64,000 nucleotides of DNA, taken from assembly GCA_965205485.1 (NCBI GenBank), contig OZ242180.1, positions 923,016 through 987,015 on the forward strand, given 5' to 3'. The DNA comes from Candidatus Latescibacterota bacterium (lineage in GTDB: Bacteria; Latescibacterota; UBA2968; GCA-2709665). Position 1 is the stretch's first letter. Every line of letters begins with the position of its first letter. The position numbers and the translations under genes are program-made. The notes below the pieces were generated by a model. It had not been told where the DNA came from, made no database searches, and worked only from the letters and a program-made list of their open reading frames with translations. Of this stretch, positions 13,574-64,000 are shown in pieces.

Positions 13574-13664
13574 GAAATTCCGATCTTGCCGTCCGCGATC
13601 GGGCTGAAGGCAATCTAAAGGACTGGACTTCTCGGGCGTCTCCGCGGGAATTGGGGAAAGGACG

Positions 13665-15814: not shown

Positions 15815-16168
15815 TACTCATCCAAAGGAGGTAGATGTCTTGCCAGAATTCCAGCGAGTCACCCACAAGGAACATCTCAAAGGTGTCGCCAATGAGAAAA
15901 TGCGTACGTCGGCCAGATCCTCTCAGATCTCGCATGCACAGATTGCAACAGATCAAACTCATCCAGGACGCATCCAAGTCCTGTACATGACCGGATAATC
16001 CGCAATGCAAGCGCAAAAGCCTGGAGATTGCGCGTCAGAAACCTGACGAAATACCGGCTCGGGAAAATATAGCCGAATCTTGAAATCTGTCAACGGTATT
16101 TCACCTTGAGACGATTTCAGAAACGTCGGCTTTGTTTGCTCTTGAAGGCAACTCCCAGGATTTCCACT

Positions 16169-23607: not shown

Positions 23608-23767
23608 GTCCGACTCAATGCGGTGATCCCACCCCGGTCCGTGCCTGCCAAAAGGGCCGGACCATCGGCGAGATCCAGGCCGGCAGGAAGCCCGGGGAGC
23701 TTGTTATTCCGATAGGATATGCTTACTTTAACCGGTCGATCGCGTCACACGCCGGGGAAGGACCAGG

Positions 23768-24902: not shown

Positions 24903-24908
24903 AGGCGC

Positions 24909-26615: not shown

Positions 26616-26636
26616 GCGGCCTCCTTAAAAGCTGTC

Positions 26637-27903: not shown

Positions 27904-27921
27904 TTACGCTTCTCCTGTCTT

Positions 27922-29892
27922 TCAATACGCATGTACACCGTGCCCCTCACCGCCGAACCAGGTGATGTCCAGCACGAACGAAACCCCGACGTTTAGCGCA
28001 TATCCGACCATCAGTCCCAGGAAAAAGGGAATGGAACGCCGGTAGAGAAAAACGCCGCCCGCCTTCAGCACGATCGCCTTTACCGACCAGGCGAGAAACA
28101 CCGACAGCACCGAATGCACCGTCATTCCCGACCAGGTAACGGCCAGGCCCAGCGGGTGCAGCGGCCACCAGGGTACCCGGTAACGCAGAAACGTCAGCGC
28201 GAGCATAGCGATGCAGCCGGCGCCGAAATACCCGAAAACCTCCGGCTTTACCGGATCCGGGCTGGACATCATGCTCACGAATGAATTAAAGGTTGGAACC
28301 GTCCGCCGGAGCAGGGCGATGCTCCCGAAATTGTACGCGCCGATCGTATAACCCCAGTAGAGCGTCAGGCCGACCGCCGTCGCCACGGCCCCGACCAGGC
28401 CCAGCGCGACGGCAAGGCCCAGCCTCCGCCGGTTTCCCCCGATCAGGTCGCCGATCTTCGCCACGTGCGCCAGAGCGGGCATGAAGAGCCCGCGGCCGTC
28501 GTTGCGCAGGGCGAAGGTAAAGGCGAGCGCCGTCATCGCGCGCCCGGGAATCGCGGCCGGGCCGACGGTGCGCAGGATGGCGGTCTGCGGGAACATGGGC
28601 GAGCTGACGTACAGCAGGCCGGACTGCGCCACCACCCGCGCGATGCCCAGGTAGGTAATGAAAAAGAGAAGCACCAGTACCGTAGAAAGGAGCAGTCCCA
28701 TGCCCGAATTGTAGAACCAGGCGATGATGAAAACCAGACTCAACGCCGCGCCGCTCACGGCCGTCCGGTAGGACAGGATCTCATCGGCATCGTCGCCGGA
28801 CGGACGGAGCGCACCTCTGAGGACCTGTCGCAGGTGTTTCCGGGCGGTCCACAGCCCCCACACCACCAGCGTACACAACGCGCCGATGCTCTGCCACGAC
28901 ACGGCCGCCCCGCCCGAGATCCCGCCAACGCCCAGCCTCCCGAAGGCGAATACCTCCCACATCGCCATGAAGTGGAAGAACCAGATGCTGAAGAGCACGT
29001 CCAGATTGGCCAGATACGCGAAGCCGATCGTATAGAAATTGATGGTCGTGTGGAGCGGCGGGAATCCCTTGAAGAAGGTCGTCCATCGCGACGGGATGCC
29101 GAGCGGAATCTCGGGAAACCCCGGCGCGAAGTGCGACATCATGTTCCAGGTCATCACCAGGGTGGCGGCCCCGAATCCGAACTTGAACGCGCGGGTGCGC
29201 ATGAAACCCGGAAACAGGACTCCGTCCCGCACATCTCCGGCCATGTCCGCGGCCACCTGCGCGAGCGGGTACACCAGGCGTTCGTACTCCACCCACTGCC
29301 GGCGCAGAATCACCATCATACACATCGAAGCAAAGGCGAAAGCGCCCACGAGGGCCATCCACCAGCTCAGCGGTCCGGCCCAGGCGCCCACGGGTATCGG
29401 AGCATCCTTCGAGGGGAGGCCTTCGAACAGCATCCTCATGGTGCCGCCGCGGTTCGAAGGTGCGATCCAGTCCGGCATATGGATATGAAAAAAGGCGCTC
29501 CACTGGTTTTCCGGGGTTGCCAGGTAGTACGGAACCGAGATCGTTCCCAGGAGCGTGGTCATCAGACTGAATCCGGGTATCATCGCACCGGTCAGGCCCA
29601 TCGCGACCACCACCAGAATCTCCGACCGGGACAGCCCCCAGCCGTGCCGCAGCGCCCTGAGCGCGGGATTGACGAACAGCGCCAGGAGCATGAACGGCAC
29701 GAACAGCCCCATCGGAAAGTGCGTCACCTGCAGCCAGGAAGCCCGGATCAGATAGAGCGAGTAGAGGATCCAGAAGTTGACGAAGACCACCATCAACAGA
29801 CCGATCCCGACGGACCTCGCCGTGACTCCGCTTCGCATATCCCGAGGGGCTTCTTTCAGTGGCACCGCGGTTTGTATTTGCGATGATTCCAT
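27922..29892 (-). CDS. large polytopic membrane protein of unknown family (M2)
   Basis: 656 aa. Block YYLATPENQWSAFFHIHMPDWIAPSN...FEGLP. C-terminus FGGEGHGVHAY. Paralogue of M1 and M3. Confidence 0.7.
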   Translation of the reverse strand: MESSQIQTAVPLKEAPRDMRSGVTARSVGIGLLMVVFVNFWILYSLYLIRASWLQVTHFPMGLFVPFMLLALFVNPALRALRHGWGLSRSEILVVVAMGLTGAMIPGFSLMTTLLGTISVPYYLATPENQWSAFFHIHMPDWIAPSNRGGTMRMLFEGLPSKDAPIPVGAWAGPLSWWMALVGAFAFASMCMMVILRRQWVEYERLVYPLAQVAADMAGDVRDGVLFPGFMRTRAFKFGFGAATLVMTWNMMSHFAPGFPEIPLGIPSRWTTFFKGFPPLHTTINFYTIGFAYLANLDVLFSIWFFHFMAMWEVFAFGRLGVGGISGGAAVSWQSIGALCTLVVWGLWTARKHLRQVLRGALRPSGDDADEILSYRTAVSGAALSLVFIIAWFYNSGMGLLLSTVLVLLFFITYLGIARVVAQSGLLYVSSPMFPQTAILRTVGPAAIPGRAMTALAFTFALRNDGRGLFMPALAHVAKIGDLIGGNRRRLGLAVALGLVGAVATAVGLTLYWGYTIGAYNFGSIALLRRTVPTFNSFVSMMSSPDPVKPEVFGYFGAGCIAMLALTFLRYRVPWWPLHPLGLAVTWSGMTVHSVLSVFLAWSVKAIVLKAGGVFLYRRSIPFFLGLMVGYALNVGVSFVLDITWFGGEGHGVHAY

Positions 29893-30011: not shown

Positions 30012-31997
30012 CTACCACCAGTGCACCTGGTGTCCCTGCCCGGGAAACCAGATGGCATCGACGGTAAAGGCCAACACAACGCCCGCCGTGTATCCCACCA
30101 GCAGACCCAGGAACAAGGGCTTGGACCGGCGGTAGAGGGCGACACCGCCTACACGCATGACAACCGCTTTGGCAGCCCACGCCATGAATACCGGCATCGC
30201 CAGGCTGTATACGTTGTCCGCGGCGGCCACGGCCAGCCCGATGGGGTGGATCGGCCACCAGGAAAAGCGATACCGCAGGAACGTGAGTACCGCCATCAGA
30301 CCCGCGCCGATCCCGAAGAACAACACCCGGCTCAACTCGGGCGCACCCGGCGTACGCATCTGTCCCAGGGTGGTGGAGAAGACCGCCTTGGGATTCCCGT
30401 TGAAGAACAGCCGGGAGAAGTTGTAGGCGCCGTGCGTATGGCCCAGATGAAGCGTAAACCAGATTGATGAGACGAGCCCCGCGAAGACGCCCACCGTGAC
30501 GCACAACAGCAGGAGGCGCCGGTTTCCGCGGATCCGGTCCGCCAGGCGCACGGCCTGCGCCAGCCCGGGCGTGAAGAGTCCCCGCATATAGTCGATCAGC
30601 GCGTAGGAAAGCGCGATGGACGTCAGACACGCGCCGGAGAGTCCGTAGGTGCCCCGCAGGTCCATCACGAAGGCCTGCGGCGTCACCGTACCCTGCGCGT
30701 ACGCCACACCGGCCTCGGACACGACCCGGGCCAGTCCGATATAGATGATGCCCAGCGCGAACAGGAACATCGCCGCCGAAATCGCGTCCATGCCGGATCG
30801 ATGGAGCCAGAACAGCGTGAAAATTACGCTCAGCAGCAGGCCCAGGACCGATGCCCGGTACGACAGGACCTCCCTGCCGTCGTCCAGCGGATGGTCCGGC
30901 CGCAGCGCCTTGAGGAACACTCCCCTCAGGTGGGTTCGGGCGACCCACAGGCGCCACGCGACGAGGCATGCAAGCGCGCCGAAGCACTGCCACGCCTCGG
31001 TGGGCGGATCCGCGCTGAAGGTATCCGTGGACCGTTCGATCTGGTACCCGAGCCGGTTGAAGATGCCCCCCTCAACCACGTGTACCAGGAAGAAGAACCA
31101 GATGCTGAACAGCACCTGCAGGTTGGCGAAATACGCGAACCCGATGGTGTAGAACTGCAGGGGCTGGATATAGACGCCTGGAGAGTAGCGCGTAAAGCGG
31201 AAGTAGCCCGCGTGGGGAAAGAACCGGATGCCGGGCATCCCGTGGAAGAACCAGGATGTGGCGTGCCAGGCGAACAGCGCAAATGCGAATACGGCGCCGA
31301 ACCAGAAGAGCCGGCCCTTCATGAAGTCCGGTAGCGTACTCCGGGACGACGCGCCTTCCGCCATTTCCATCGGCACGGCGGCAAGAGGATAGACCAGCTT
31401 CTCGTTTTCGGCCCACTGTCGTCGCAGAATGACCATCGCGCAGGCCGAACCGACCAGGAGCGCCGCGACCAGGCTGCCCCACCACGCCAGGGGCGCGAGC
31501 CACGCATTCCAGGCATCGACCCCGGCCGCGCCGCCTTCGAAGAACGCCCGAAGCGCATCTCTGTCTGACGGGACCATCCATGCCTGAAGATGCGGGTGGT
31601 AGTATTCCGCCCACCCGTTCTCCGGCGTTGCGAAGTAGATCGGGCTGCCGATCACCCCCACCAGGAACCCGGTGACACCGGACGTCGGCACCACCGAGCC
31701 CACCATCCCGATCGCCGCCACCGTCAACAGCTCGGAAGGCGACAGAACTGCGCGCGGCCTGATCCGCCGGAGCAGCGGGTTCACGCCGCCCACCAGGGCG
31801 ATGAAAATGCTCAGCAGCGTCAGCTGAAAGAAACTCAGGTTGAGCCGGGAGGAGCGTACGACTGTCTCCGCGTAGGTCACCCAGAGGTTGATCGCGACCA
31901 CGGCCAGCACGCCGATGAACACTGCCCGGAGGGTGATCCCTTCTTTTGACCTCGAGTGCTGCTCAACCGAAAGGGATTTCTCTCCGGATCGATCCAT
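30012..31997 (-). CDS. large polytopic membrane protein of unknown family (M3)
   Basis: 661 aa. Block YFATPENGWAEYYHPHLQAWMVPSD. C-terminus FPGQGHQVHWW. Paralogue of M1 and M2. Confidence 0.7.
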   Translation of the reverse strand: MDRSGEKSLSVEQHSRSKEGITLRAVFIGVLAVVAINLWVTYAETVVRSSRLNLSFFQLTLLSIFIALVGGVNPLLRRIRPRAVLSPSELLTVAAIGMVGSVVPTSGVTGFLVGVIGSPIYFATPENGWAEYYHPHLQAWMVPSDRDALRAFFEGGAAGVDAWNAWLAPLAWWGSLVAALLVGSACAMVILRRQWAENEKLVYPLAAVPMEMAEGASSRSTLPDFMKGRLFWFGAVFAFALFAWHATSWFFHGMPGIRFFPHAGYFRFTRYSPGVYIQPLQFYTIGFAYFANLQVLFSIWFFFLVHVVEGGIFNRLGYQIERSTDTFSADPPTEAWQCFGALACLVAWRLWVARTHLRGVFLKALRPDHPLDDGREVLSYRASVLGLLLSVIFTLFWLHRSGMDAISAAMFLFALGIIYIGLARVVSEAGVAYAQGTVTPQAFVMDLRGTYGLSGACLTSIALSYALIDYMRGLFTPGLAQAVRLADRIRGNRRLLLLCVTVGVFAGLVSSIWFTLHLGHTHGAYNFSRLFFNGNPKAVFSTTLGQMRTPGAPELSRVLFFGIGAGLMAVLTFLRYRFSWWPIHPIGLAVAAADNVYSLAMPVFMAWAAKAVVMRVGGVALYRRSKPLFLGLLVGYTAGVVLAFTVDAIWFPGQGHQVHWW

Positions 31998-39336: not shown

Positions 39337-42300
39337 TTATGCGACATATTCCACCACGCCGTCGCGCCTGCCCACCAGCAGCCCGCCCCCGGGAAACGCA
39401 GCCGCCGCAGTGATGGCATTCCCGCCACTCGACCAGCCAACCTCGCCGCTGCCGTCCAGGCCCACCGTCCTTCCATCTCCAAGCGCCACCAGGCAACCGC
39501 CTCCCTCTCCCGGCGACAGGCCGAACACCGGCGCTGCCAGAAAACGATGCCACAGCCTATCGCCACCAGTTTCGAAACACTGTACGTAACCGTTCGAGGC
39601 GCCCGCGAATATGCGCCCTTCAGCATACGCCACTGACAGCACGGCGCCGCCCGCGTCCGCATCCCACAACACCTCGCCGTCCCCGCCATAGACGATCAAC
39701 TGTCTGTGATTCGTATCGACGCCGCTGAGCACTTCGTCGACGCCATCTCCGTTCAGGTCCGCCGCGCGAAGACACTTCGACCACGAGGGGATTGACCAGC
39801 TCATGATATCGGGCCGCGAGAGCGTCTTCACGCACGCGCCCCTGGCATCGAACACACGGACGCACCCGTGAATCGACGGGTCCGCCATCCCCGCGAGCAC
39901 GTGAAGGCCGTCCCCGTCACGCAGCCGCGCCACCGCGAGGCAGGTAGGCGGACCCCACTGGCAGGCGGAACGCCACAACAGCGCGCCGCCCTCATCGAAC
40001 GCGTAAACGTGACGGTCGGCGCAGCCGGCCAGGATCTCGTCTCTGCCGTCGCCGTCGATATCTCCGGACGCCAGGCTCAGGACTTTGCAGTTCAGCCACG
40101 TCCAGTAGTCCCAGTTCATCGGCTGCCACTCGAGTTGATGCGTCCACACCTCCTGTCCCGATGCGTCCAGCCGGCGCACGGCTTCGCCATCCCCGCCGGC
40201 GACCACCCCGCCGTCGGCAAGGGCGAGAACCGTTCGTACGCGTCCTGACAGACGATGGGTCCATCGCCTTTCACCGTTTCGGTCGAACGCCGTAACGCCG
40301 CCGTCATCGTCGCCCGCGAAGCAGCCCCCTTCCCACACGTCCATCGCCGTAACCGGTGCGCCGCACGATCCTCGCCAGGCCGGCTTCGCGTCACCTTTTT
40401 CGGCGACGAACGGTCCCGCATCGGAGCCGTCCAGGGCGGCGCCCCACGTGGGAAGGACCGCCGCGTCTTCGCCAATCCTGACTTCGTCGCACCCGGCTGA
40501 AAGGGAGACCGTGGCGACCGTCCCCTCGCCTTCAACCCGATAGCCGGACGCTTCGGCAGACATCGCAAACGTCCTTGCTGCGTCCCTTCGTCGCTCCAGA
40601 ACAGGGTGGCCAATCTCACCCCTTCATCGGGCTTGAGGGATTTCAGCGAGCGCTGCGCCCACCGCGTTCCACCTTCTGCCAGAGCCGACGTCACCGGGGC
40701 AAGTTCCCGGGCGCCGCTACCCGAATGCCGCATCTCCAGCCGGGCATCTTCCTGGATTGCTCGAAGCCCCCCGTCGGAGGATTCCACGTCCCCATACACG
40801 TGCCAGCGACACTCGATCAGGTACTCGCCTTCGGCCTTCGCCCGGACTTCGTCGATGACCATAAACCAACCGTCCCGGCTGTTCACGATATGGCGATTCC
40901 AGTCCGCCTGGCCGGGATACCCCATCGACGTCCCCGCGGCGGAGAGTCGGTCTCCCTCCGAGACGTATCGCAGGGCCGCATACCGGGACTCGCAGCCGGG
41001 CCCCGCGCCGTCAACCGCGACGCTCACCCCGTTGTGGTCCCGGATCGATGCCGGACCCACGCGACCCCCGAACCAGTTCTTTCCGCGTCCGGTGTACCGG
41101 ACGATACAGTTTCCGTCCTGATAGGAATGGGAGCCTCCCGAGATACCGCAAAGCAGCAGATAGTCGTCGTCATCCGTCCATCCGGAACGGAAGTAGACCT
41201 TGTCGAACGTCTGTTCGAAAGGCACGTCACGCAGGTAAACACCCTCCGGCGCGAATCCACCGATGTCCTCCAGAGAATCGTAGAACAACCTTGAAAGCGG
41301 AGCCACGCCCACACGGCCCATCCGCTCCGGCGTTGCGGCGCCTCGTCCCGTCACCCAGGTCCGGAACGGCTCCACGTTCGCACGAACAGCCTTCCCGGCC
41401 AGGCCGCCCTCGTCCGACGTTCCGCAAAGCTGCAGGTATTCGTCGTTTCCCGTCACGGCCGCGGCCATCAACATGTACTGTTGCGGCCCGCCTTCGAGAT
41501 TGCTGTGTGCGACCAGCGCCCTGTCCACGCCCTCCAGATAGGGTTTGCTGGTAAAGTAGTCCGTCTTTCCGGAAGCCAATGCATAGTCGGCGGTATTGAA
41601 GAGTGAAAACGACCACTGGTGCCCCCACGAATCGCACACGGGCTTGTTCGACGTCATCTGCGGCGCGAAGAACACCTCCGCCAGTTTCATCCATGCCCGC
41701 CCTTCAGCCAACCCGTGCACCTGGTGGAAATACCGGCCACCATAAAACAGATCGAGACCGGACATGGTCTGATGGTTCTGCCGCACGCGGTCCACACCCA
41801 CGTGGTTGAGGAATCCGGCATTACCGGCGCCTTCCGTGGACCGGTACAGCCCCAGGAATGCTTCAAGCGTCTCCTCCCGCTGGTCTCCGGGAAGGCCCGG
41901 ATGATTCTCGAGAACGGTGAACGGCAGCAGCATGGTCCTCAGGAACCCGTGAATCTGCGGCGGATCGGGCAGGTGGCGTTCGAACCACCGCGTGCGCGCG
42001 AAGTTGCGGACCTGCCGGCAGAACATCGGGATGAGTTCCTCCAGGCCGGTCTGCACCGCCAGCATCCCGATTTCGGAAATGGCCCACATGTAGGTCCAGT
42101 CCCCCGGTCCGCTCGTAAACTCCCGCTCCAAAGCCTCGTCGCCCTGGTTCAGCCGCTCCTGTGCAGGCTTCAGGTACAGGTCGGCCCATCTCCCCAGGTT
42201 CACGTGGTACTGAAATGGAAGTTCCGCACCCGACACCCGGATCGTACGGGAAAGCGCTCCTGCCGCATCCTCGACGTCATCCGCCTGGCTTACTCCCACA

Positions 42301-42629
42301 ACGATCACGTGCCCCGCGTCTTCCAGAGAATCCGGTGCCGTGCGGATTACCCAGCCGCCGGGCCCGGGCCAGATCCGGTCCGTCAGATCGTATGCGCGGA
42401 AGTACATCGTCCTCACAAACGCGCTGTTCATCATGTTTCCCAGCGCGATCACGTGGCGTCCGCCCGCGTCGAGGAGCGCGTCGGGCAGGATCTCCACGCC
42501 GGCCGAAAGCACATCCTTCAGGGCGGATTGAAGACGCTTCGCCGCGGCCTGATACGGCTCGGAATCGGGCGCCGAAATACAGACGCCGGCAGCGAGATCC
42601 GTCTCGTGAACGGGTTTGCGGAAGTTCAT
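39337..42629 (-). pseudogene. giant paralogue 3, frameshifted near 40575-40582
   Basis: The N-terminal ORF (42629 down to about 40580) ends at ...VRLATLFWSDEGTQQ and then becomes garbage. The propeller part continues in the ORF 39337-40563 (ARTFAMSAEASGYRVEGEG...). One missing base restores colinearity with paralogues 4 and 5. Confidence 0.7.
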
Positions 42630-42711: not shown

Positions 42712-45700
42712 CTACCGGTAGCATTCCAGCGCGCCATCGTTCCGTCCCACCAGCAGGCCGCCGTCCGGCCACGCGGATGCCCAGCCAGCCGCCGTTGCGT
42801 CCGGATTCCCGGTGTGCGTCGTACGAATCTCTCCCGATCCGCCCAGACCGACGACCGTTCCGCCTCCCAGGGCCGCCAGAGACCCACCATCTCCACGCGG
42901 GGCCAGCCCGACCACCGGTTCGGCCAGAAACCGGCTCCACAGGCGTGTGCCGTCCGCCGCGAAACACTGCGCAAATCCGTTGGATGCGCCCGCGTACACC
43001 CGACCCTCACTGGCGTTGACCGACACGACAGCACCACCGACGTCCGCATCCCACAACACCTTCCCATCCCTGCGATACACGATCAACTGACGGTGGTTGG
43101 TATCCACGCCACTGAGCACCTCCTCCCATCCATCCCCGTCCACGTCGCCACGTCGACGCACTTCGACCACGACGGAATCGACCAGCTCATGATATCCGGC
43201 CGCGACAGCGTCTGCTCACACGCCCCGTCCGATTCGAATACCCGGATACATCCGTGAATCGACGGGTCCGCCATCCCCGCCAGCACCTGACGTCGGTCCC
43301 CTTGCCGCAGCCGCGCCACCGCCAGGCACGTGGGCGGACCCCACTGGCAGGCGGAACGCCACAACAGATTGCCCTCGTCGTCAAACGCGTAGACGTGGCG
43401 GTCCGCGCATCCGGCCAGAATCTCGTCTTTCCCGTCGCCGTCGATATCGCCGGCCGCCAGGCTGAGGACTTTACAGTTCAGCCACGTCCAGTAGTCCCAG
43501 TTCATCGGTTGCCACTCGAGTTGACAGGACCATACCTCGCGGCCCGACCCGTCCAGCCGGTGTACGGCTTCCGCCTCCCCGCCAGCCACGACCCCGCCGT
43601 CTGCAAGGGCGAGTATCGTGCGTATGCCTCCGGATATTGAATGGGTCCATCGTATCCCGCCGTTCAGGTCGAACGCCGTGATGGCTCCGCTGTCGTCGCC
43701 CGCGAAGCAGCCCCCCTCCCATGCATCGACCGACGCCACCCTTCCGCCGCATGTGCCGCTCCACACCGGCTTCGACTCGCCCCCTGCGATGACAAACGGC
43801 CCCGGCTCGGTTGCTTCGACGATGCGGCCGGCCATTGGAAGTACGACTGCATCGGCTACCAGGTTCACGCCCTCGCTTTCCGCCGCGAACGAGACCGTCA
43901 CCGCCCTGCCCTGCCCCTCGATACGATAGCCGGACCCCTCCGGTTCAAGCGTATACGAACGAGCCTGCTCCAGATCGTCGCTCCAGAAAAGAGTAGCGTA
44001 CCGCATCCCTTCGCCCGGCTGAAGCGGCTTCAATGAGCGCTGGATCCAACGCATGCCGCCCTTTTCCAGGGCTGCTGTCACCGGTATCAGGTCCTGCGAC
44101 GCGCAGCCCGCGTGCCGCATATTCAGTGTCGCATTACCCTGAACCGAGCGCAGGGACCCATCCGACAGCGTTACGTCTCCGAGCACGTGCCAGCGGCCCT
44201 CAACCAGGAATTCACCTGCCACCTGCGCCTGGACCTCGTCCACCACGAGAAACCACCCCGCCTTGCCGTATACGATATGGCGATACCAGTCGCCCTGACC
44301 GGGATATCGCATCGAAGTGCCCGCCACCGAAAACGCCTCACCCTCCTCCACGTATTTCAAGGTGGCGTATCGGGACTCACGTCCCGGGCCCGCTCCGTCC
44401 ACTGCGATGTTCACTCCGTTGTGGTCGCGCACCGAGGCCGGACCCACGCGATCTCCGAACCAGTTCCGTCCCCGCGCCGTATACCGCACAATGCAGTTGC
44501 CGTCCTGATACGAATGAGACCCGCCCGATATGCCGTCCAACAGCAGATAGTCGTCGTCGTCCGACCATCCGGACCGGAAGAAGACCTTATCGAATGCCTG
44601 CTCGAACGGCACGTCGCGCAGGTACACGCCCTCGGGCGCAAACCCGCTGGAACCCTCGAGCGAATCGTAGAACAGCCGCGAGAGCGGCGCCACGCCCACC
44701 CGTCCCAGCCTCTCCGGCGCTATCGCCCGGCGTCCCGTCACCCATGATCGAAGCGGCTCTTCCGGTCCCTTTATGGATCGTCCGGCCAGGGCATCTTCGT
44801 CAGAGACGCCGCAGGGGTGCAGGTATTCATCGTTCCCCGTGGCCGTCGCGGCCATCAGAAAGTACTGCTGCGGGCCTCGTTCCAGGTTGCTGTGCGCAAT
44901 CAGCGCCCTGTCCACACCCTCCAGGAACGGTTTGCTCGAAACGTAATCCGAGCGCCCCGACGCCAGCGCAAAATCCGCAGTGTTGAACAGTGAAGCGGCC
45001 CACTGATGGCCCCACGAGTCGCACACCGGCTTGTTGGACGTCATCTGCGGCGCAAAAAAGACCTCCGCAAGCTTCATCCACGCCCTGCCCTCGGCCAACC
45101 CATGCACCTGGTGGAAATACCGTCCCCCATAAAAGAGGTCAAGCGCCGACCGGGTCTGGTGGTTCTGCCGAACCCTGTTCACGCCGACGTGGCTCAGAAA
45201 TCCGTTGTTCCCGGCCCCTTCTCCCGATCGGTATAGCGCCAGGAGGGCGTCCAGGGTCTCCTCTCGCATTTCTGTCGGGACGGACGGATGGTTTTCCAGG
45301 ATCGTGAACGGAAGCAGCATGGTCCTCAGGAACCCGTGAATCTGCGGAGGGTCCGGCAGATGGCGCTCAAACCACCGCGTACGCGCAAATTGGCAGACCT
45401 GCCTGCAGAACATCTCCATCAACGCTTCATCCCCGGTCCGGACCGCCAGCATCCCGATGTCTCCGATCGCGCGCATATAGGTCCAGTCGCCCGCCCCGCT
45501 GGTATATTCCCGCTCCAGGTGGGCGTCGCCGGCCTCCAGCCGCTCCCGCGCCGGCCTCAGATACAGATCCGACCACCTCCCCGGCTGCACGCGGTACTGG
45601 AACGGTAGCGTGATACCCGTCTCGGCGATGGTGTTGCTGAGGGCATCCGCCGCCCCGGTAACGTCCTCCGCGCTGCTCACGCCCACGACCACCACGTGAC

Positions 45701-46016
45701 CTACCTCGTCCAGGGAGTGCGGCGCGGTACGGACCGCCCACCCGCCGGGGCCCGGCCAGACCCGGTCCGTCAGATCGAATGCCCGGAAATACAGCGCCTT
45801 CAGGAACGCGCTGTCCATCATGTTCCCAAACGCGATCACATGGCGCCCGCCCGCATCGAGCCGCGCGTCCGGCAGGATTTCAACGCTATCCGAAAGCGCA
45901 CCGTGCAGGGCCGCCTGAAGCCGCTTCGCAGCGGCCTGATACGGCTCGTCACCGGGCGACGAAATACAGACGCCGCCAGTGAGATCCGTCGCGTGAACAG
46001 GTTTGCGGAATGTCAT
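42712..46016 (-). pseudogene. giant paralogue 4, frameshifted near 43145-43150
   Basis: The main ORF 43083-46016 ends at ...SWSKCVDVATWTGMDG. The tail (VEVRRRGDVDGDGWEEVLSGVDTNHRQLIVY...) is in the ORF 42712-43170. Adding one G (GCGAC to GCGGAC) gives CVDVADVDGDGWEEV, which matches paralogue 5. Confidence 0.7.
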
Positions 46017-46268
46017 TTCACATTCCTTTCTCCGTGCCGGCTTGGACGCAAGGGGGTAGTCGGGTTCGGCGCGCCTGAGTCGAACGCGGTTTCTTCCTGA
46101 TTGCCTGAAAGACTTGCGATCGAAGCCCTGTAACGGTTATCTTGTAATTTCACGGGTGTATCGGTCTATTTCATCGCGTCAGGGTGATTTTGTACAATCA
46201 AAATACAATGACCCGGGCATAGAAACCACCTCAAACCGTACTACAGGTCCACAGATAAGGAGAGCGTT

Positions 46269-48245
46269 GTGTCGCAAAGGATTCGCAGTGTCATGATGGT
46301 CGCACTTGCCGCAGGTCTTGCATGGAGTTGCGGCCGCGAACGCGTTTTGGAGTCTTCCGGGTCGGATGACCGGATTGGCCGCGCGCTGAGCAAGGTGGCG
46401 GCAGCGGGCGATGGTCGTGCATCTGGGGCGCTGGTGGAGGCGTCTGTGTCGCGAGATGGCGCGCCCGCGGCACATGTGATGGTCGAATTTGCGCGTTCCA
46501 TTGCCGGGCGGAAGCCGGACTATCGGTGGTCGGGAACGACCGATGCCAAGGGGCGCGTTACAGTGGAGATATCCAGTCCGGCGACGGGTTATTTTCAAGC
46601 GCGCGCGTCTCAGGATGGCGCCGTGACGGGCCACTGGTCCAGCATCCCGGTCAATGATGGTTACAGGACATTGGTCGCGTTGCCCGTTGGCGGAAAGGCG
46701 CGGGTGGCGCGATCATCCAGGATAGGTGTGATTGCCATCGGTCTTGTTCCGCATCTGAGCGGTGTGTTCAGTTCGCCCCGTCCGCCAATGAGAAACGCGT
46801 CTGAAATGGCTCTTGAAGAGATCAATAACGCGCACGGTGAGCCGAGATTCGAGTTCATCATTGAAGATAGCCGCAGCACGATAGATGGTGCCGTTGAGGC
46901 TTTTAAGAAGCTGATTCATCGAGATGGCGTCCTCGCCATTCTCGGTCCTCGTACTTCAAGTCAGGCCGTGGCGGCCTTTCCCATCGCGCAAGAAAACCGT
47001 GTTGTGGCACTCGGTCCGACTTCTGCCGCACGAGGTATCAGTGAGATGGGGGACTTTCTCTTTCGCGCGAGTCTCACCGTAGATCGGTACGTGCCCGGCG
47101 GCATCGAGAAGACGCGGGAGGCGCTCGGCTACAAGCAGGTGGCGACGATATTCGATGACGCGGATGTTTTTTCCCGAAGCAGCGACGAGGTCATTCGGAA
47201 CGCGCTCACGGAAGGCGGCGTTGACATTGTGACGACAGAGACTTTCCAGACCGCCGATGCCGATGTTTCCGCGCAACTGACTCGGATAAAAGCGTTGAAT
47301 CCGGATGCCGTCTTTATTTCTTCTCAAGCTGTAGACATGGCTGATATTCTGATTCAGGGACGGCAAGTCGGTATTCCTGCCGAGGTTCCCTTTATCACGT
47401 CTTCGGTGCTGACGTTAGACGGCATAAAGCGTGCAGGCGTCGCTGCCGAGGGTGTTATTGCGTTTACGGCCTGGAGCAGCATGGCCGATACACCTGGTAA
47501 TCGCGCCTTCGTCGAGAATTATACGTCAAGATACGGGGTTGAACCCAATGTGATTGCCGCACAATCCTACGCCAGTGTTTATATCTTGACGCAAGCAATT
47601 TCAGATGCCCGCTCTGCATCGGGATCTGAGACTCCGGAATCCGAAAATATTCGGGATGCGTTGCGCAATGTTCGGAATTTCGACACGGTGCTGGGTCCGT
47701 TTTCTTTCGATAACGTTGGCGACGGGGTCTACAACCCGACGGTATTGACTGTCAAGAACGGCGCACTTGCTGTTTTCGATCCAACGCCTGCCGCGGTTGC
47801 GACCGCGATAATCGGCGAGACGAATGACAGCGGTTTGACCGGAAAAGCGACTTTCGCACAGTTCGGCGATAATATCAAACTGGTCGTCTCGCTGGCGAAT
47901 GCGTCCGCAGGCGAACACGCCGTCCATATCCATGCAAAGGGCGATTGCAGTGCGTCAGACGGGACATCGGCCGGCGGGCATTGGAATCCCACGGGCGTAG
48001 CGCACGGCAAATGGGGAGAAGGTGAATTTCACCTCGGCGACATCGGCAATGCGAGCGTCGATGACCAGGGCACAGGAAGTATTGAATTGACGACGAATCT
48101 CTGGGAGATCAATACGGGTTCAGCAATTGATATCGTTGGCAAGGCGATCGTCGTCCATGCGCGCGCTGATGATTTCGTCTCGCAACCTTCGGGCAATGCC
48201 GGCGCGCGTATCGGTTGCGGTGTGATTGTGTTGGACCAGCAATAG
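46269..48245 (+). CDS. secreted three-domain fusion: leader, a carboxypeptidase-regulatory-like beta-sandwich, a LivK-type periplasmic binding domain (PBP1), and a C-terminal Cu,Zn superoxide dismutase
   Basis: GTG start with an AAGGAGAG Shine-Dalgarno. PBP1 blocks IGVIAIGLVPHLSGVFSSP...ALEEINNAHG...LAILGPRTSSQAVA. SodC signatures HAVHIHAKGDC, GGHWNP, HLGDIGN, AIVVHARADD, GNAGARIGCGVI. Confidence 0.8.
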   Translation: MSQRIRSVMMVALAAGLAWSCGRERVLESSGSDDRIGRALSKVAAAGDGRASGALVEASVSRDGAPAAHVMVEFARSIAGRKPDYRWSGTTDAKGRVTVEISSPATGYFQARASQDGAVTGHWSSIPVNDGYRTLVALPVGGKARVARSSRIGVIAIGLVPHLSGVFSSPRPPMRNASEMALEEINNAHGEPRFEFIIEDSRSTIDGAVEAFKKLIHRDGVLAILGPRTSSQAVAAFPIAQENRVVALGPTSAARGISEMGDFLFRASLTVDRYVPGGIEKTREALGYKQVATIFDDADVFSRSSDEVIRNALTEGGVDIVTTETFQTADADVSAQLTRIKALNPDAVFISSQAVDMADILIQGRQVGIPAEVPFITSSVLTLDGIKRAGVAAEGVIAFTAWSSMADTPGNRAFVENYTSRYGVEPNVIAAQSYASVYILTQAISDARSASGSETPESENIRDALRNVRNFDTVLGPFSFDNVGDGVYNPTVLTVKNGALAVFDPTPAAVATAIIGETNDSGLTGKATFAQFGDNIKLVVSLANASAGEHAVHIHAKGDCSASDGTSAGGHWNPTGVAHGKWGEGEFHLGDIGNASVDDQGTGSIELTTNLWEINTGSAIDIVGKAIVVHARADDFVSQPSGNAGARIGCGVIVLDQQ

Positions 48246-48323
48246 GAGGTCGAGTCTGACAACCTTGATTCGTCACTTCTTCCGGGACGCAAAGTCGAAT
48301 ACAGGCAAGCGGATAGAGGCGAT

Positions 48324-48364
48324 TTGACGTCGGATTGCCAGGAAACTTCAGGTGACTTGACGTG
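48324..48364. promoter_or_regulatory. second pair of TTGACGT(C) motifs
   Basis: GATTTGACGTCGG and GACTTGACGTGAA lie in the convergent gap between the SOD fusion and giant paralogue 5. They resemble the pair at 35555-35595. Confidence 0.25.
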
Positions 48365-48452
48365 AACGGAAGATACATCCTTCCGGACGACCTTTTCGGC
48401 CCGTTCTGGATGGATTCCCGGCGGCGCGGCGTTGCTTTTTCTGGAATTGCGT

Positions 48453-51400
48453 CTAACGGAAGAGTTCGAGCGCGCCGTCCTTTCGGCCCACCAGCAGGCC
48501 GCCTTCCGGCCATCCGGATGGCCATCCGTAACCGTCACTTCCGAATCCCCTGCGTCCGTCGTCCGGATCTCTCCCGAGCCGTCGAGGCTCACCACGCGCC
48601 CGCCTCTCAGTGCCGCCAGGCATCCTCCATCTCCCGCGGGCGCCAGACCGGCCACGGGCTCGACGAGAAGCCGTCGCCACAAGCGGCTGCCGGCGGCGTC
48701 GAAGCACTGCACGAAACCGTTGGACGCCCCGGCATACAGGCGCCCATCGTGGACCTCCGCGGCGAGCACGGCCGCGCCCATATCTGCGTCCCAGATCACC
48801 TCGCCGTCCCGCCCGTAGACGATCAACTGCCGGTGATTGGTATCCACCCCGCTGATCACCTCGTCCCGGCCGTCCCCGTCCACGTCCGCTACGCGCAGGC
48901 AGCGCGACCAGGAGGGAATCGACCAGTTGACAATATCCGGGCGCCGAAGGGGCTTCCCGAGCGTTCCGTCCTTCGCGAAGACCAGCGTGTGCGCGTGAAT
49001 GGCCGGGTCCGCCAGGCCGGCGAGCGTCTGACGCTCCGGACCATCCTCCAACCGCACGGTATCCAGACACACCGGCGGTCCCCACTGGCAGGGGGAACGC
49101 CATAGTTGGCTGCCGGCGGCGTCGAGCGCGTAGACATGACGGTCCGCGCATCCGACCAGTATCTCTTCACGTCCGTCGCCGTCGATATCGCCCGCCGCGA
49201 GGCTCAATACCACGCAGTTCTTCCTGGACCAGCTATCCCAGTTCATGGGCTGCCATTCGATCCGATAGGACCAGACGGTTTCGCCCGTTGCATCCAGCCT
49301 GTACACGGTCTCTTCGTCCCCTCCCGCTGCGGCGCCCCCATCGGCCAGGGCAGCAAGCGCCCGTACGCCGCCTTCGATCTCCCGTTTCCAGAGAACGTCG
49401 CCGTCGGAGTTGAACGCGGTCACTCCGCCGTCGTCGCCCGCGAATCCTCTATCCTTCCCGATATCCAGCGCCCTCACGGCATCCGCGCACCGCGTTCGCC
49501 AGACGGGTTTCGCCTCGCCGCCGGCGATCTGAAATGGCGAGGAATCGGTCGCTTCCACAGCCCGACCGGCCGTGGGCAGCGTTGCGCCGGATGCAGAGAC
49601 CTCCGGGGTTTCAGCGGTTTCCATGAGTGCAACCGTGACGGGCTCGCGGCCCCCCTCGATTCGAAAACCAGTCTTCTGTTCGACCAGCCTGAAATCCCTG
49701 CCATCGCCGACCGCGTCGGTCCAGAAAAGCGTCGCCATCCGGGTCCCCGTTCCCGGCCGGAGCGCCGCCAGGGAACGTTGGACCCACCGCGAGTGGTCTT
49801 CCGCGCACCAATAGTCCGAAGGGACAAGCTCCTGGCATCCGCTCCCCGCGTGCCGCATGTTCAACTGCGCGTCACCCTGAACCGACTGCAACAGGCCGTC
49901 TGAAAGGGACGCTTCACCCAGGAGGTGCCACCGGCACTCCACGAGAAACTCTCCCGCGACCACGGGCCAGACCTCGTCGATCACCAGAAACCATCCTTCA
50001 CGGCTGTACACGATATGCCGGTACCAGTCGCCCTGCTCAGGATAGGTCATCGACGTGCCCGCCACGGCAAGGTTCTCCCCTTCATGCAGGTACCGCAGCG
50101 CCACGTACCTGGACTCGCACCCCGGGCCGGCGCCGTCTACGGACACGCTCACGCCCGTGTAGTCCCGGACCGTCGCCGGCTGGTGGCCTCCGGCAAACCT
50201 GAACCAGGAGGCGCCGCGGCTGGTGTAACGCACGATGCAGTTGCCGTCCTGATAGGAGTGCGAGCCCCCCGAGATCCCGTCCAGCAGAAGATAGTCGTCC
50301 TGGTCCGTCCATCCGGAACGGAAGAACACCTTGTCGAACGTCTGTTCGTAGGGCAGATTCCTCAGATAGACGCCGTTTACCGGCGCAAACGTCGTGTATT
50401 CTTCGAGAGAGTCGTAGAACAACCGCGACAGGGGGGCCACACCGACCCGGCCCAACCGTTCCGGCACCGCCGCCGGCCGCCCCGTCACCCAGGTCCGCAG
50501 GGGCTCTTCGGCGCCTCGAATGGTCCGTTCCGCCGCCGCGCCTTCGTCAATGGATTCACAAAGCTGCAGGTATTCGTCATTGCCCGTTACCGCCGCGGCC
50601 ATACGGCAGTATTGTTCGGGGCCTCGTTCCAGGTTGCTGTGCGCCATGAGCGCACGGTCCACGCCCTCCAGGTAGGGCGGGCTCGAAAAGTAGTCCATCT
50701 TCCCTGCCGCCAGCGCGTAGTCCGCCGTGTTGAACAGCGAGGCCCCCCATTGATGGCCCCACGAGTCGCACACCGGCTTGTTCGATCCCATCTGCGGCGC
50801 AAAGAAGACCTCCGCCAGCTTCATCCACGCCAACCCCTCCGCGAGCCCGTGTACCTGGTGGAAATACCGGCCTCCGTAAAACAGATCGAGCGCGGAACGG
50901 GTCTGATGGTTCTGGCGCACCCGGTCCACGCCCACGCAACTGAGCAGCCCCGAATTGCCGGCACCCTCCGCGGACCTGAAGAGTCCCAGCAGCGCTTCGA
51001 GCGTCTCCTCCCGCTGTTCGGCGGGAAGCGAGGGATGGTTTTCAAGAATCGTGAACGGCAGCAGAAGCACGCGGATGAACCCGTGGATCAACGTGGGGTC
51101 CTCCAGCGTCCGCTCGAACCAGCGCGTACGGGCGAAGTGGCGGATCTGATGGCAGAACATCGACATCAACCTGTCGTTTCCCGTCTGCACCGCGAGCATC
51201 CCGATATCGGCGATAACCATCATATAGGTCCAGTCACCCGATCCTCCGCCGATGGATTCCTGCTCGATGTCCCGGTTGCTCTTGGCCAGCAACTCTTGCG
51301 CCGGCTCCACGTACAGATCGGACCATGTGCCCGGATGTACCTGGTATTGGAACGGCAGTACGGGACCGTTTTCAGTCTATCGCACCGGCCAGCGCCCCGG

Positions 51401-60875: not shown

Positions 60876-61925
60876 ATGAACGCACTCGGGAGCAATTCGA
60901 TGCCGGTCAATCTCTCAAGAGACCTGAAACACAAACAAGACGGTTTCGGCGCCGAGCGAAACATCCACGAATACGAAAAAGGCTTCAGGGTGGCCAGGGA
61001 CGCCGTCGCTGAGAATGAAGACAGCGACGACAGGATGGTCAGCGTTCTGTACTACGATCTGGTTACTGACTTCTACGAATACGGTTGGGGCAGATCATTT
61101 CACTTTGCCCCGCGTGTCCCTGGAGAAAGCTTCGAGGCATCGCTTGTACGCCACGAACGCTATCTGGCGCGGGTACTCGGCCTTGAACCCGGGATGGTCG
61201 TCGCCGACGTGGGCTGCGGCGTCGGGGGCCCGCTAATGGAGATCGCGCGATATTCCGGCGCCAGGATCGTCGGCGTGAACAGCAACGCCTATCAACTCGA
61301 ACGCGCCCGGGAACGTACGGTAGAAGCGGGGCTGACGCACCTGGTCGAGTTCCTGCAGTGCGACTTCCTGAACGTGGATGCCGCGGACGAGTCGTTCGAC
61401 GCCGTATACGATATCGAAGCGACCTGCCATGCGCCGGATAAACTCAGCATCTATAGCGAGATCTTTCGTCTTTTAAAACCTGGCGGACGCTTCGGCGGTT
61501 ACCAATACTGCCTGACCGATCGCTTCGACGCCAACGATCCCCAGCATCTCAGGATCAAGGCCGACATCCAGCTGGGTGGCAGCCTGTTCGTGATCGACGA
61601 CACGCACACGGTCGATCAAGCGCTTCGATCTGTTGGCTTTGAGGTACTGGAAGCACGGGATCTTTCGATCCAGAATGGGCCGTCCATCCCCTGGTTTCAA
61701 CCTCTGATCGGTTCCGGTCTTTCTCTGACCGGCTTCCGCAGATCGAGGATCGGGCGCTGGGTCACGCGGAACTCGCTGAGATCGCTCGAAGCGCTACATA
61801 TCGCGCCACGGGGATCGGCCCGCGTAGCAGCAACTCTGGACCTCTGCGCGGAGGCCCTGGCCGAGGCCGGCCGGCTCGGGATCTTCACGCCGATGTACCT
61901 CGTTCACGCCCGCAAACCAGCGTAA
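60876..61925 (+). CDS. sterol 24-C-methyltransferase (ERG6/SMT)-like SAM-dependent methyltransferase
   Basis: SMT region I YEYGWGRSFHF, SAM motif VADVGCGVGGP, region III YDIEATCHAP, plus KPGG and FTPMYLVHARKP. Near-colinear with yeast ERG6 over about 300 aa. Confidence 0.8.
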   Translation: MNALGSNSMPVNLSRDLKHKQDGFGAERNIHEYEKGFRVARDAVAENEDSDDRMVSVLYYDLVTDFYEYGWGRSFHFAPRVPGESFEASLVRHERYLARVLGLEPGMVVADVGCGVGGPLMEIARYSGARIVGVNSNAYQLERARERTVEAGLTHLVEFLQCDFLNVDAADESFDAVYDIEATCHAPDKLSIYSEIFRLLKPGGRFGGYQYCLTDRFDANDPQHLRIKADIQLGGSLFVIDDTHTVDQALRSVGFEVLEARDLSIQNGPSIPWFQPLIGSGLSLTGFRRSRIGRWVTRNSLRSLEALHIAPRGSARVAATLDLCAEALAEAGRLGIFTPMYLVHARKPA

Positions 61926-61959: not shown

Positions 61960-64000
61960 CTATCTGACGGCGGGCATGAAATCCTGTGAGGCCTGGAACT
62001 CCCCCGCGCCGGGGATGGCTTTGGGTTGAACGGTATATTTCCCCCTGGGAACCACGAAAAAAGCGGTGTTCCTGCGCGCGTCGACCCGGGCGTTGTACCG
62101 GACAATACCGTCCCTGTTGCGGATACTCCAGTCGCCCGGCGCCAGGCCGGTCAGCAATAACTGACAGCTTCCATCCCCACCGACCCCCACCTGCAGCGTC
62201 TGCTCCAGCGGCTTGCCGGTCCGGTTCAAGACCACGACCCGGTCCGCCAGCGTGACAACGAAGGCTTCCGGGAGTTCAACGAGGTCGACCGGCAGCTGCT
62301 CCTCCTGTTCGTCACACATCGTCATCACCGTCAGAAACACATCGTTGCTCCGCTCTTCCACGGGTGAGAACATCACGCGATGGCCGTTCGCTTCAGGACG
62401 GTCCGGTTTTGGCGGCGTAAAGTACTGTCCGAACACGCTATTGGCGTCATTTCCGCTCAGGATCTGCGTATCCCGCTCATCCGCCCCCGGTCGCAGCATT
62501 CGCAGCACGACCTTGCCGCTCCCGTCAGCGTCGCTGTTTCTCAGGATAACGCCGTCGTCCGTCGTTTCGGGCGGGTTGAGGGTGTTGACCTGCCAGTATT
62601 TCCTGAACTCCGGTCTGGCCGTGGTCATATTGTCCAGGACGATCAGCGCCGCGGCAGTCTGCTCGTTGTCGAGGTTCAGGAAGCAGAAGGTCCGGACGTA
62701 GTCCTCGATCTTCTCGCTGTAGGCCGACGTCAGATTGACCGAGAAATAGCTGTAGAACGGCCGCTGAGGGGACGGGCCAAAGCTGGTCGAGACGACGCCA
62801 CCGTTGGCGAACGTCGGATCAGAAAGCGCCTGGTCCGGTGTGGTCGGGCAGGATTGAATGAAACGCACGCCCCCGTCATTGACGGTATTCCGAATGAACT
62901 GCTCTTCAGGATCGACCGCCAGCATCATGCTGTGCGAAATCGAACGTTTACAGAAGTTGAAGTCGTAGGGCGTTCCGTAGAAATGGTACTGCCCCAGGTC
63001 GGCCGCCTGCAGCCCGCGGTAGTAGATCTGGAAGCTGCCCGCGTCGGCGTGCTGGTGATTGCCGAAGTGATACCCGCCGCCCTTCATCTCCACGACCACG
63101 TCGGACGCGCCGGGGCCCATGTTCCATCCGGTCCGGGCGACCATCGAACCGAGGATCGGGCCGAAATCGATGGTGAGCGGCAATGAAGAGAAATCCTCGG
63201 CAGCCTTCAAGTCCGGGTCGTTCAGCAGCAGCACCATGATCGGTTCGGAGGGAAGCCCGCCCTGCCGCTCGAAGTCGTGCTTGATGACCGGATCGTTGCT
63301 GTAGGCGTAGCTGAGCAGTGCTGTAGCGCCGAGACTTGCCGGCCGTCCGTCAGAAAACCCGTCGCCGTCACGTAGCGTCTCTCCGTTCGGCATGCGCATG
63401 TAGAGCCAGAACTTGCAGACATCCGCGATGTTGTCGTCGAAGACCCGCTCGCCGGTCATACGGTTAAACAGCCAGGCCGCGTGCATATCCCATCCGAACC
63501 GGTACGGGCCGTAGCTGACGCCCTGGTTGTGGCGCGGGGACCGGTATTCGAACCGGCGCATCGGAACCAGTTCTTCCAGCATGCGGTAGGCGCAATATCG
63601 ATACGGTACCGGGTCTTCGTCGTAGATGGCGATGGCCATGCAGAGCAGATCGCGGTTGACCTGCGCCTCGTTGCCATGGCCGTTGACGATGATCTGCTTG
63701 AACGGCGGCCAGCCGATTTCCATATCGTCGGCGAGGCGCATCAGGTCGGTGCGAATGCTGTTCCTGTCGCTCGGTGTCATCAACTCGTAGCACCAGTCGT
63801 AAACCAATGCCGCAGAGTAGATGGCCCGGCCGATCTCCCTTGTAATATCAAGCAGATTTCCGAATTCGACCGCGGCGAGATAGTCGCGGATCAGCGCCAC
63901 CGCTTCCCGGCCGGGCGTCTCCTCGCCGTTCATCAGATAAACGAAGGCCCTGGCGACGGCCGCTTTCTCGAGTTTCGGATTGTGGCCGACTTCCGTACCC
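61960..64000 (-). CDS. heparinase II/III-like protein, 5'-truncated at the window end
   Basis: Motif GGGYHFGNHQHADAGSFQIYYRG. The reading frame stays open to nt 64000. Confidence 0.75.
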   Translation of the reverse strand, partial: GTEVGHNPKLEKAAVARAFVYLMNGEETPGREAVALIRDYLAAVEFGNLLDITREIGRAIYSAALVYDWCYELMTPSDRNSIRTDLMRLADDMEIGWPPFKQIIVNGHGNEAQVNRDLLCMAIAIYDEDPVPYRYCAYRMLEELVPMRRFEYRSPRHNQGVSYGPYRFGWDMHAAWLFNRMTGERVFDDNIADVCKFWLYMRMPNGETLRDGDGFSDGRPASLGATALLSYAYSNDPVIKHDFERQGGLPSEPIMVLLLNDPDLKAAEDFSSLPLTIDFGPILGSMVARTGWNMGPGASDVVVEMKGGGYHFGNHQHADAGSFQIYYRGLQAADLGQYHFYGTPYDFNFCKRSISHSMMLAVDPEEQFIRNTVNDGGVRFIQSCPTTPDQALSDPTFANGGVVSTSFGPSPQRPFYSYFSVNLTSAYSEKIEDYVRTFCFLNLDNEQTAAALIVLDNMTTARPEFRKYWQVNTLNPPETTDDGVILRNSDADGSGKVVLRMLRPGADERDTQILSGNDANSVFGQYFTPPKPDRPEANGHRVMFSPVEERSNDVFLTVMTMCDEQEEQLPVDLVELPEAFVVTLADRVVVLNRTGKPLEQTLQVGVGGDGSCQLLLTGLAPGDWSIRNRDGIVRYNARVDARRNTAFFVVPRGKYTVQPKAIPGAGEFQASQDFMPAVR

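Follow-up and report, generated by a model that had tools for sequence, protein, structure and literature searches.

Multidomain Cu,Zn superoxide dismutases (SODs) are recognised, with 276 InterPro architectures cited in a 2025 paper (PMC12362111). According to the same paper, DrSOD (DRA0202) of Deinococcus radiodurans is a Cu/Zn-SOD naturally fused to a beta-propeller lactonase, with both domains independently active, and DrSodC of Deinococcus is a predicted lipoprotein (PMC12362111). Here we describe a different natural fusion, encoded in a 64,000-nucleotide stretch of a Candidatus Latescibacterota genome (contig OZ242180.1, positions 923,016 to 987,015; hereafter the window, in whose numbering positions are given). 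A preliminary description of this DNA had proposed that one open reading frame (ORF) of 658 codons at 46269–48245 on the plus strand joins a leader, a beta-sandwich, a periplasmic binding domain and a SodC domain, and Pfam searches and AlphaFold2 (AF2) modelling bore this out. We denote the transthyretin-like beta-sandwich as Ig, the Peripla_BP_6 domain as PBP and the Sod_Cu domain as SOD; L-numbers (L001 etc.) refer to genomic loci of relatives and P-numbers (P0116 etc.) to their proteins. With moderate confidence, we read the product as a lipid-anchored, most likely periplasmic, bifunctional lipoprotein in which PBP and SOD would act side by side, uncoupled from each other. Its main interest lies in clean cassette evolution and in the repeated association of PBP and SodC in sponge symbionts.

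Like DrSOD, the fusion protein is a naturally occurring, exported SodC with more than one domain, and in both of them SodC is paired with an unrelated domain that handles small molecules. The two differ in that the DrSOD partner is an enzyme rather than a binding protein, in domain order, which is reversed (SOD is C-terminal here), and in lineage. Stand-alone bacterial SodC proteins (DrSodC and the lipoprotein SodC of Poribacteria) share with it the Sod_Cu fold, the full set of metal ligands, the arginine, the disulfide and a Cys-ended leader, whereas the fusion protein has ~490 extra residues, made up of tether, beta-sandwich and PBP, between anchor and enzyme. Bacillus subtilis YojM (1xtm, 1s4i; match E ~5e-18) is likewise a lipid-anchored protein of the Sod_Cu fold; it is described as SOD-like and is not known to have copper ligands or activity, whereas in the fusion every metal ligand is present and invariant. 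On the side of the binding domain, tandem-PBP lipoproteins of Poribacteria (740-aa PBP-PBP) and Latescibacterota (845-aa Ig-PBP-PBP), for which GlnPQ-type tandem solute-binding domains are the textbook analogue, have the same leader, a first PBP with 47–57% identity to that of the fusion and the same anchor-PBP-X order, X being a second binding domain in them but a SOD enzyme in the fusion. In line with the preliminary description, which knew of no described fusion of this kind, our literature search found no paper describing a PBP-SodC fusion, and the architecture may be among InterPro's 276. The accompanying statement that SodC is normally a stand-alone enzyme proved too strong, many multi-SOD and fused proteins being present among the 50% cluster representatives.

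The Ig-PBP-SOD gene is intact and conserved in sponge symbionts

The Pfam models Peripla_BP_6 (PF13458; residues 155–492, E=2.7e-58, 198.7 bits, cutoff 31.7) and Sod_Cu (PF00080; residues 524–653, E=3.6e-36, 124.9 bits, cutoff 28.9, profile positions 2–133 of 133) both matched the protein far above their gathering thresholds. A search of 5.8 billion clustered proteins for the same architecture yielded at least 57 protein clusters with Ig-PBP-SOD at 59–96% identity, many of them on closed 5–6 Mb chromosomes, and, when each GTDB species was scanned through a single genome, the intact gene turned up in four near-identical metagenome-assembled genomes (MAGs) or chromosomes (96–99%) and about 15 more distant ones. 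At least five independent near-identical assemblies (L001/L010, L002, L007, L008 and L009, the last a closed chromosome) carry the intact ORF, as do dozens that are more distant. Matches came from sponge-associated MAGs that bear the label Candidatus Latescibacterota or, in some cases, Gemmatimonadota, and the nearest relatives are tied to Rhopaloeides odorabile metagenomes (Robbins et al. 2021, PMC8163846).

The idea that an assembly fault or a frameshift joined two neighbouring genes, a concern raised in the preliminary description, draws on the window itself, where a neighbouring gene has at least one 1-nt indel and other paralogues look split. Nonetheless, the ORF is uninterrupted in at least 57 clusters and more than 20 genomes, whether assembled with SPAdes, with MEGAHIT or from long reads to closure; all 49 aligned members keep the reading frame across the junction (...KDGKFEVFD-(linker)-ATxIGETN...); and purifying selection acts along the whole ORF, with ratios of nonsynonymous to synonymous substitution rates (omega) of ~0.13–0.5 over all modules (0.13–0.20 in SOD, 0.16–0.24 in PBP and 0.3–0.5 in Ig). 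The number and diversity of intact homologues led us to reject such a merge, whose probability is practically negligible, and the Ig-PBP-SOD gene is genuine and conserved in sponge-symbiont bacteria.

In NCBI these proteins are named only 'ABC transporter substrate-binding protein', so that the fusion has been unnoticed rather than absent. A genome-resolved study of sponge Latescibacterota lists only sodA and katG (PMC12993501). Since the NCBI name hides the SOD and that study lists only these two genes, the envelope Cu,Zn-SOD of these symbionts is probably under-counted in inventories of their oxidative-stress functions.

The superoxide dismutase domain

The SodC metal-ligand motifs listed in the preliminary description are all present and map onto positions of human SOD1, with H553, H555, H571 and H630 aligned to H46, H48, H63 and H120, and H579, H588, D591, R647 and C650 aligned to H71, H80, D83, R143 and C146. 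C560 is not aligned with human C57 and sits a few residues upstream of that column, at what we take to be the disulfide-cysteine position of bacterial SodC. All ten residues are invariant among the family members (n=49), and the domain is predicted to be catalytically competent.

The closest solved Cu,Zn-SOD was 7b4o (E=7e-34). Whole-protein scores fell below the cutoffs of the NCBIfam SodC equivalogs of Caulobacter (NF047632, 77 against 250), E. coli (NF007628, 46.5 against 165) and the mycobacterial type (NF047631, 34.8 against 230), and the fusion SOD is a distinct SodC clade rather than an orthologue of the proteins that these models describe. Its closest stand-alone relatives are Poribacteria SodCs, at ~59–71% identity. 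We considered whether the nearest of these are the SodCs encoded beside a PBP gene (see below) and rejected the idea, as they score slightly under the non-adjacent ones. The AlphaFold check put forward in the preliminary description gave a mixed outcome: the model was confident for PBP (predicted local distance difference test, pLDDT, 85–97) and the beta-sandwich (81–91) and poor for SOD (27–68), owing to the shallow alignment of that part.

Among the best matches to the fusion SOD domain were also proteins of 490–1900 aa with 3–10 tandem Cu,Zn-SOD-like stretches (P0121–P0132); multi-SOD repeat proteins are thus present in metagenomes.

Leader and N-terminal beta-sandwich

The leader ends in a cysteine, C21, that is invariant in 94 aligned relatives and whose column coincides with the canonical LSGC/LAGC lipoboxes of Poribacteria relatives. 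Its invariance and its place at the end of the leader are more suggestive of a lipoprotein than of the secretion leader proposed earlier. Leaders of the lipoprotein type, ending in Cys, were also found on reading the sequences by eye in ~58 of the 60 stand-alone Poribacteria SodCs (a strict lipobox pattern matched 43 of the 60), in which the Cys is followed by a linker of ~20 residues. In the simplest picture, the fusion protein would be a lipid-anchored SodC with a lengthened tether.

Pfam matches to the beta-sandwich at residues 52–151 were weak (DUF4198, Big_1), and a precomputed PF13620 match was present on one paralogue of the fusion protein. AF2 gave an eight-stranded domain with pLDDT 81–91 in the full-length model and 90.7 when it was modelled alone, and the best Foldseek matches were transthyretins (template modelling (TM) score ~0.5, E ~2e-4). 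The earlier assignment as carboxypeptidase-regulatory-like can stand, then, at most as a transthyretin-like fold class.

The solute-binding domain

PBP is the least conserved module by sequence. Its closest solved sequences were the HAAT-family binding protein of Anabaena (4obb/4nqr, E ~5e-39), and its two-lobe AF2 model matched the LivK/LivJ-type structures 3td9, 4nv3 and 4gnr in Foldseek with target-normalised TM scores of 0.88–0.90. Like the HAAT proteins (E. coli LivJ/LivK, Thermotoga LivK 3td9, Anabaena variabilis 4obb/4nv3/4nqr), it has the family's hidden Markov model match, the two-lobe fold and an equivalent of LivJ S79. Unlike them, it is fused at both ends and predicted to be lipid-anchored, has no livHMGF-type genes nearby, and has Ser at the position of LivJ E226 (N280 in the Anabaena protein) and Ala at that of T102. 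The NCBIfam LivJ/LivK model PRK15404 scored 71.7 against a cutoff of 477, and the score for UrtA was far under its cutoff. Assignment to the Leu/Ile/Val-binding class was thus upheld for fold and family only. A liv-type transporter operon around the gene was considered and rejected, as none was found in any annotated neighbourhood.

In LivJ structures, S79, T102 and E226 contact the alpha-carboxylate and alpha-ammonium groups of the amino acid. In alignments at only 21–27% identity, S79 corresponds to S230, which is conserved, T102 to Ala and E226 to S379. By their PDB titles, the wild-type Anabaena protein (4obb), with N280 in the E226 column, was crystallised with a 2-oxo acid and its N280D variant (4nv3/4nqr) with amino acids. 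Pocket positions vary among the fusion subgroups, the Ser379 column being deleted or hydrophobic in subgroups other than that of the window protein, in which the LivJ Tyr18 position is Pro. S230, S252, R266 and D299, which we locate in the cleft or close to it, do not vary among 94 relatives, non-fused paralogues included. The ligand could plausibly be a carboxylate that is not one of the standard alpha-amino acids, a tentative reading at 21–27% identity.

These features also bear on whether PBP binds anything, since it could be a rigid spacer or scaffold that keeps SOD off the membrane. Such a role would suit a domain with no adjacent ABC transporter genes, with the acidic residue for the ligand amino group lost and Tyr18 replaced by Pro, with the lowest sequence conservation of the modules and, as shown below, cleanly deletable with SOD kept. 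Nevertheless, omega in PBP is as low as in SOD, the presumed cleft residues are those invariant across the 94 relatives, a SOD-less Ig-PBP is kept at the same locus elsewhere, so that PBP is valuable alone, and in Ig-SOD forms Ig alone acts as spacer. We consider a non-binding PBP unlikely.

Modules are gained and lost at one genomic slot

In most Latescibacterota, the gene is part of a conserved gene order, aminotransferase-sulfatase-NHL-(~1000 aa)-Omp85-[X]-PIG-L-MFS-MerR. X stands for Ig-PBP-SOD in at least 13 genomes, for Ig-SOD in L031 (a 327-codon open frame) and for Ig-PBP (487–489 aa) in L088 and L090, where the protein ends exactly at the domain boundary and is followed by the same downstream terminator hairpin. 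Three architectures thus share one syntenic slot among genomes with 90–95% identical flanks. The boundary of the PBP cassette is seen directly in L006 (Ig-PBP-SOD) and L032/L033 (Ig-SOD), which are collinear, with 92–95% identity on both sides of a segment of 1041 nt (347 codons) present only in L006, the junction lying at a CGG 3-nt microhomology. Moreover, L031 retains EVIAI, the first strand of PBP, ahead of the SOD start. This cassette boundary and remnant lead us to favour an origin of the Ig-SOD forms by in-frame deletion of PBP from a fused ancestor.

The modules of the fusion protein also differ in their histories. Between the window gene and those of L004, L013, L017 and L024, synonymous divergence (dS) is 1.45–2.2 in PBP against 0.5–0.85 in Ig and SOD; between the window gene and the near-identical L001 and L009, it is 0.27–0.31 in SOD against 0.01–0.05 in PBP. 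PBPs of fusion proteins are 83–97% identical to those of SOD-less Ig-PBP proteins (relationships were taken from pairwise identity tables). These data reveal a lipoprotein family put together in cassette-like fashion, SOD being one passenger among several at the C terminus, and they offer an unusually clean natural case of domain-cassette gain and loss. Separable as they are, the modules all seem to be functional, given the omega values and the invariance of the presumed cleft residues. As a further observation, L022 carries at 10001–16525 a tandem array of Ig-PBP-PBP (844 aa), Ig-PBP (506 aa) and Ig-PBP-SBP_bac_3 (823 aa) genes, with no ABC transporter genes nearby and an adjoining McrBC system.

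The preliminary description had inferred that the fusion may couple ligand binding to detoxification or sensing of reactive oxygen species (ROS). Such coupling could mean that the PBP ligand gates or targets SOD, or that SOD protects or processes an oxidation-prone ligand. It finds no support at this slot, where close relatives have Ig-SOD without PBP or Ig-PBP without SOD, nor in the histories of the modules, since the PBP cassette was swapped among paralogues while SOD stayed, as the dS contrast and the 83–97% identity to SOD-less PBPs indicate. The differences in pocket positions among fusion subgroups also speak against it. In its favour are the short interdomain linker, of ~7 residues, and a PBP pocket atypical for amino acids that resembles, at N280, the wild-type Anabaena protein with its 2-oxo acid.

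The slot also places the gene beside a possible export route. In at least 14 genomes it follows, on the same strand and after ~77 bp, genes for an Omp85 protein resembling BamA/TamA and for a protein of ~1000 aa that has a weak SprA-like stretch, and the anchor and Ig are constant and the cargo variable, as would be expected if the lipid anchor and an Ig handle were recognised by these neighbours and PBP and SOD were swappable cargo facing the sponge host. Against this, the synteny covers nine genes and may be mere inheritance, this synteny is absent in the window lineage and in L006, the Omp85 and SprA matches are far under the family cutoffs and no lipoprotein surface-export signal is defined for the phylum; surface export seems very unlikely to us. 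The arrangement is typified by L003 (5125–9922), where the ~1000-aa gene and a 555–577-aa BamA/TamA-like Omp85 gene precede the fusion gene, and is found likewise in L004, L005, L011, L013–L021, L024, L031, L088 and L090. The ~1000-aa upstream neighbour gave no Pfam match and no PDB sequence match, the weak SprA-like stretch being the only similarity.

PBP and SodC are also associated outside the family

A second small family, of 549–559 aa (P0116, P0292), consists of PBP-SOD fusions without Ig. Among PBPs, its nearest relatives are those of the Poribacteria tandem-PBP family (57%), and its SOD has 70–82% identity to Poribacteria SodC against 62–69% to the Latescibacterota fusion SOD. As both modules are of the Poribacteria type, the same two modules have been joined independently. 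In addition, seven Poribacteria loci carry a lipoprotein SodC gene and a gene for a PBP ~50% identical to the fusion PBP on one strand, in several orders, with gaps between the two of 64–315 bp in five of the seven. No such PBP was found within 10 kb at the other 53 of 60 Poribacteria SodC loci; the seven are a minority of the SodC genes and were retrieved because both query halves matched, so that their selection carries an ascertainment bias.

The independent fusion and the same-strand gene neighbours are what coupling of PBP and SOD would lead one to expect, and the 53 SodC loci without a PBP stand against it. Taking these with the evidence from the syntenic slot, we judge mechanistic coupling improbable. 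Some association of the two modules nonetheless seems non-random, and a looser PBP-SodC partnership may exist; an obligate one is not supported by these gene arrangements. In functional terms, independent joining in two sponge-symbiont phyla and, as a third arrangement, neighbouring genes together give a 'Rosetta-stone' hint that links an orphan HAAT-type binding protein with envelope superoxide defence in host-associated bacteria.

In two Poribacteria loci, L026 (8957–18195) and L028 (9881–19479), a cluster made up of a lipoprotein SodC gene and either one PBP gene or two precedes a gene for a ~750-aa WD40 beta-propeller, which in L026 also has Big_1 matches. Beta-propellers lie beside the fusion gene in the window too; this may be coincidence, such repeat proteins being common in sponge symbionts.

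A working model

In the arrangement that we favour, a single tether would comprise the lipidated Cys, a flexible linker, the transthyretin-like spacer, the HAAT-family PBP and the Cu,Zn-SOD. SOD would remove superoxide near the membrane, whether the host sponge or the bacterial envelope itself is its source. PBP would separately capture a carboxylate-type solute, which need not be an amino acid, and serve a transporter or receptor whose genes lie elsewhere. What the fusion would provide is a common anchor, common expression and co-localisation, with no allosteric coupling. It would have arisen, and continue to be remodelled, by recombination and in-frame indels in a symbiont-specific 'anchor-(Ig)-PBP-X' family in which X is nothing, a second PBP, SBP_bac_3 or SOD. 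By analogy, this independent-module model matches DrSOD, the sole characterised natural SodC fusion that we found.

Several observations weigh against this model. Fusion in two lineages and gene adjacency hint that the two domains are truly linked in function, something that co-anchoring by itself accounts for only loosely, and the AF2 structure, with its low pLDDT in SOD, leaves room for the PBP cleft to touch the active site of SOD. The acidic residue for the ligand amino group is absent in the alignments at 21–27% identity, so that Leu/Ile/Val specificity is unproven. Neither the window nor any of L001–L006, L022, L026, L028, L087, L088 and L092 carries an adjacent gene for an ABC permease or ATPase, which leaves a transport function of PBP unproven; orphan solute-binding protein genes are common in the family, and a transporter encoded elsewhere is compatible with this. 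Finally, lipobox position −2 is Trp throughout the Latescibacterota family, which is non-canonical under the PROSITE lipobox rule.

It is also conceivable, and in our view rather improbable, that the recurrent PBP-SodC pairing reflects a real chemical partnership, in which PBP would take a host-derived 2-oxo acid or redox-active carboxylate and SOD its superoxide, or else that the anchor and Ig, with the Omp85/SprA-like pair, form a cargo-swapping surface display against host ROS.

Genomic context of the fusion gene

Coordinates of the gene, its modules and its flanking ORFs are collected in Table 1. A scan for promoters and terminators around the fusion gene gave counts not above those in shuffled sequence.

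Table 1. Features of the Ig-PBP-SOD gene and its immediate neighbours in the window.
Feature	Position	Strand	Basis and remarks
Whole ORF, 658 aa + stop	46269..48245	+	GTG start; ORF list, Pfam; leader, beta-sandwich, PBP and Cu,Zn-SOD
Shine-Dalgarno-like AAGGAG	46257..46262	+	6 nt before GTG; read from sequence
Signal peptide ending LAWSC (lipobox-like), Cys21 presumed lipidated	46269..46331	+	C21 conservation
Flexible tether, residues 22–51	46332..46421	+	AF2 pLDDT <50 for residues 1–51
Transthyretin-like (Ig-like) beta-sandwich, residues 52–151	46422..46721	+	AF2, Foldseek; weak Pfam
Type-1 periplasmic binding domain (Peripla_BP_6, HAAT family), residues 153–503	46725..47777	+	Pfam, PDB match, AF2
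Interdomain linker DPTPAAV, residues 504–510	47778..47798	+	Alignment; SOD-less relatives stop here (...KFEVFE*)
Cu,Zn superoxide dismutase domain, residues 511–658	47799..48242	+	Pfam, PDB match 7b4o, SOD1 alignment
SOD active-site codon span	47925..48218	+	H553/H555/H630 Cu; H571 bridging; H579/H588/D591 Zn; R647; C560–C650 disulfide
Upstream giant paralogue (context only)	43083..46016	-	PQQ_2 and lambda-carrageenase-type beta-propeller matches
Downstream giant paralogue (context only)	48029..51310	-	Last ~165 codons are a frameshift run-on over the sod 3' end, opposite strand

The flanking giant ORFs are paralogous to each other (1200–1249 bits). In the window lineage (L001, L007–L010), the gene lies outside the ancestral slot, on the opposite strand within this array of giant beta-propeller paralogues. 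Its placement against flanking paralogues, pointed out in the preliminary description, is therefore correct for the window and specific to its lineage, most relatives using the other slot. The fusion gene has a GC content at third codon positions of 0.60 against 0.76–0.79 in its neighbours, and relatives in genomes of 52–53% GC have a gene GC of ~0.52; the contrast is consistent with relocation or transfer of the fusion gene.

Relative to L007, L008 and L009, the window is 1 nt short after 48524, and the corrected paralogue ends ...GRKDGALELFR*, as in relatives. The apparent 216-nt convergent overlap of the fusion gene with the downstream ORF arises because of this deficit, and the deficit at 48524–48525 may be either a genuine frameshift or an indel introduced in assembly. 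Elsewhere in the array, the overlapping ORFs 39337–40563 and 40116–42629 (minus strand) jointly match a single ~1100-aa gene in L001, and the 977-aa ORF 43083–46016 is shorter than its 1101-aa counterpart, with a C-terminal piece in another frame at 42715–43215. The disrupted state of the paralogues at 39337–42629 and 42715–46016 (minus strand) suggests indel errors or pseudogenisation.

Farther away, the window holds three DUF6785/DUF6784 paralogues on the minus strand (10453–12432, 27922–29892 and 30012–31997), and around them, as well as at 20854–27950 and 61960–63933, are genes for SBP_bac_1, UxuA, a MalK-like ATPase, PhyH dioxygenases and heparinase II/III-like proteins, which give the region the look of a utilisation locus for glycosaminoglycans or sulfated glycans. 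Finally, the ORF at 60876–61925 (plus strand) matches Sterol_MT_C (E=7e-23) and SAM-methyltransferase domains, and a sterol-methyltransferase-like gene in a sponge symbiont may bear on the sponge sterol biomarker debate.

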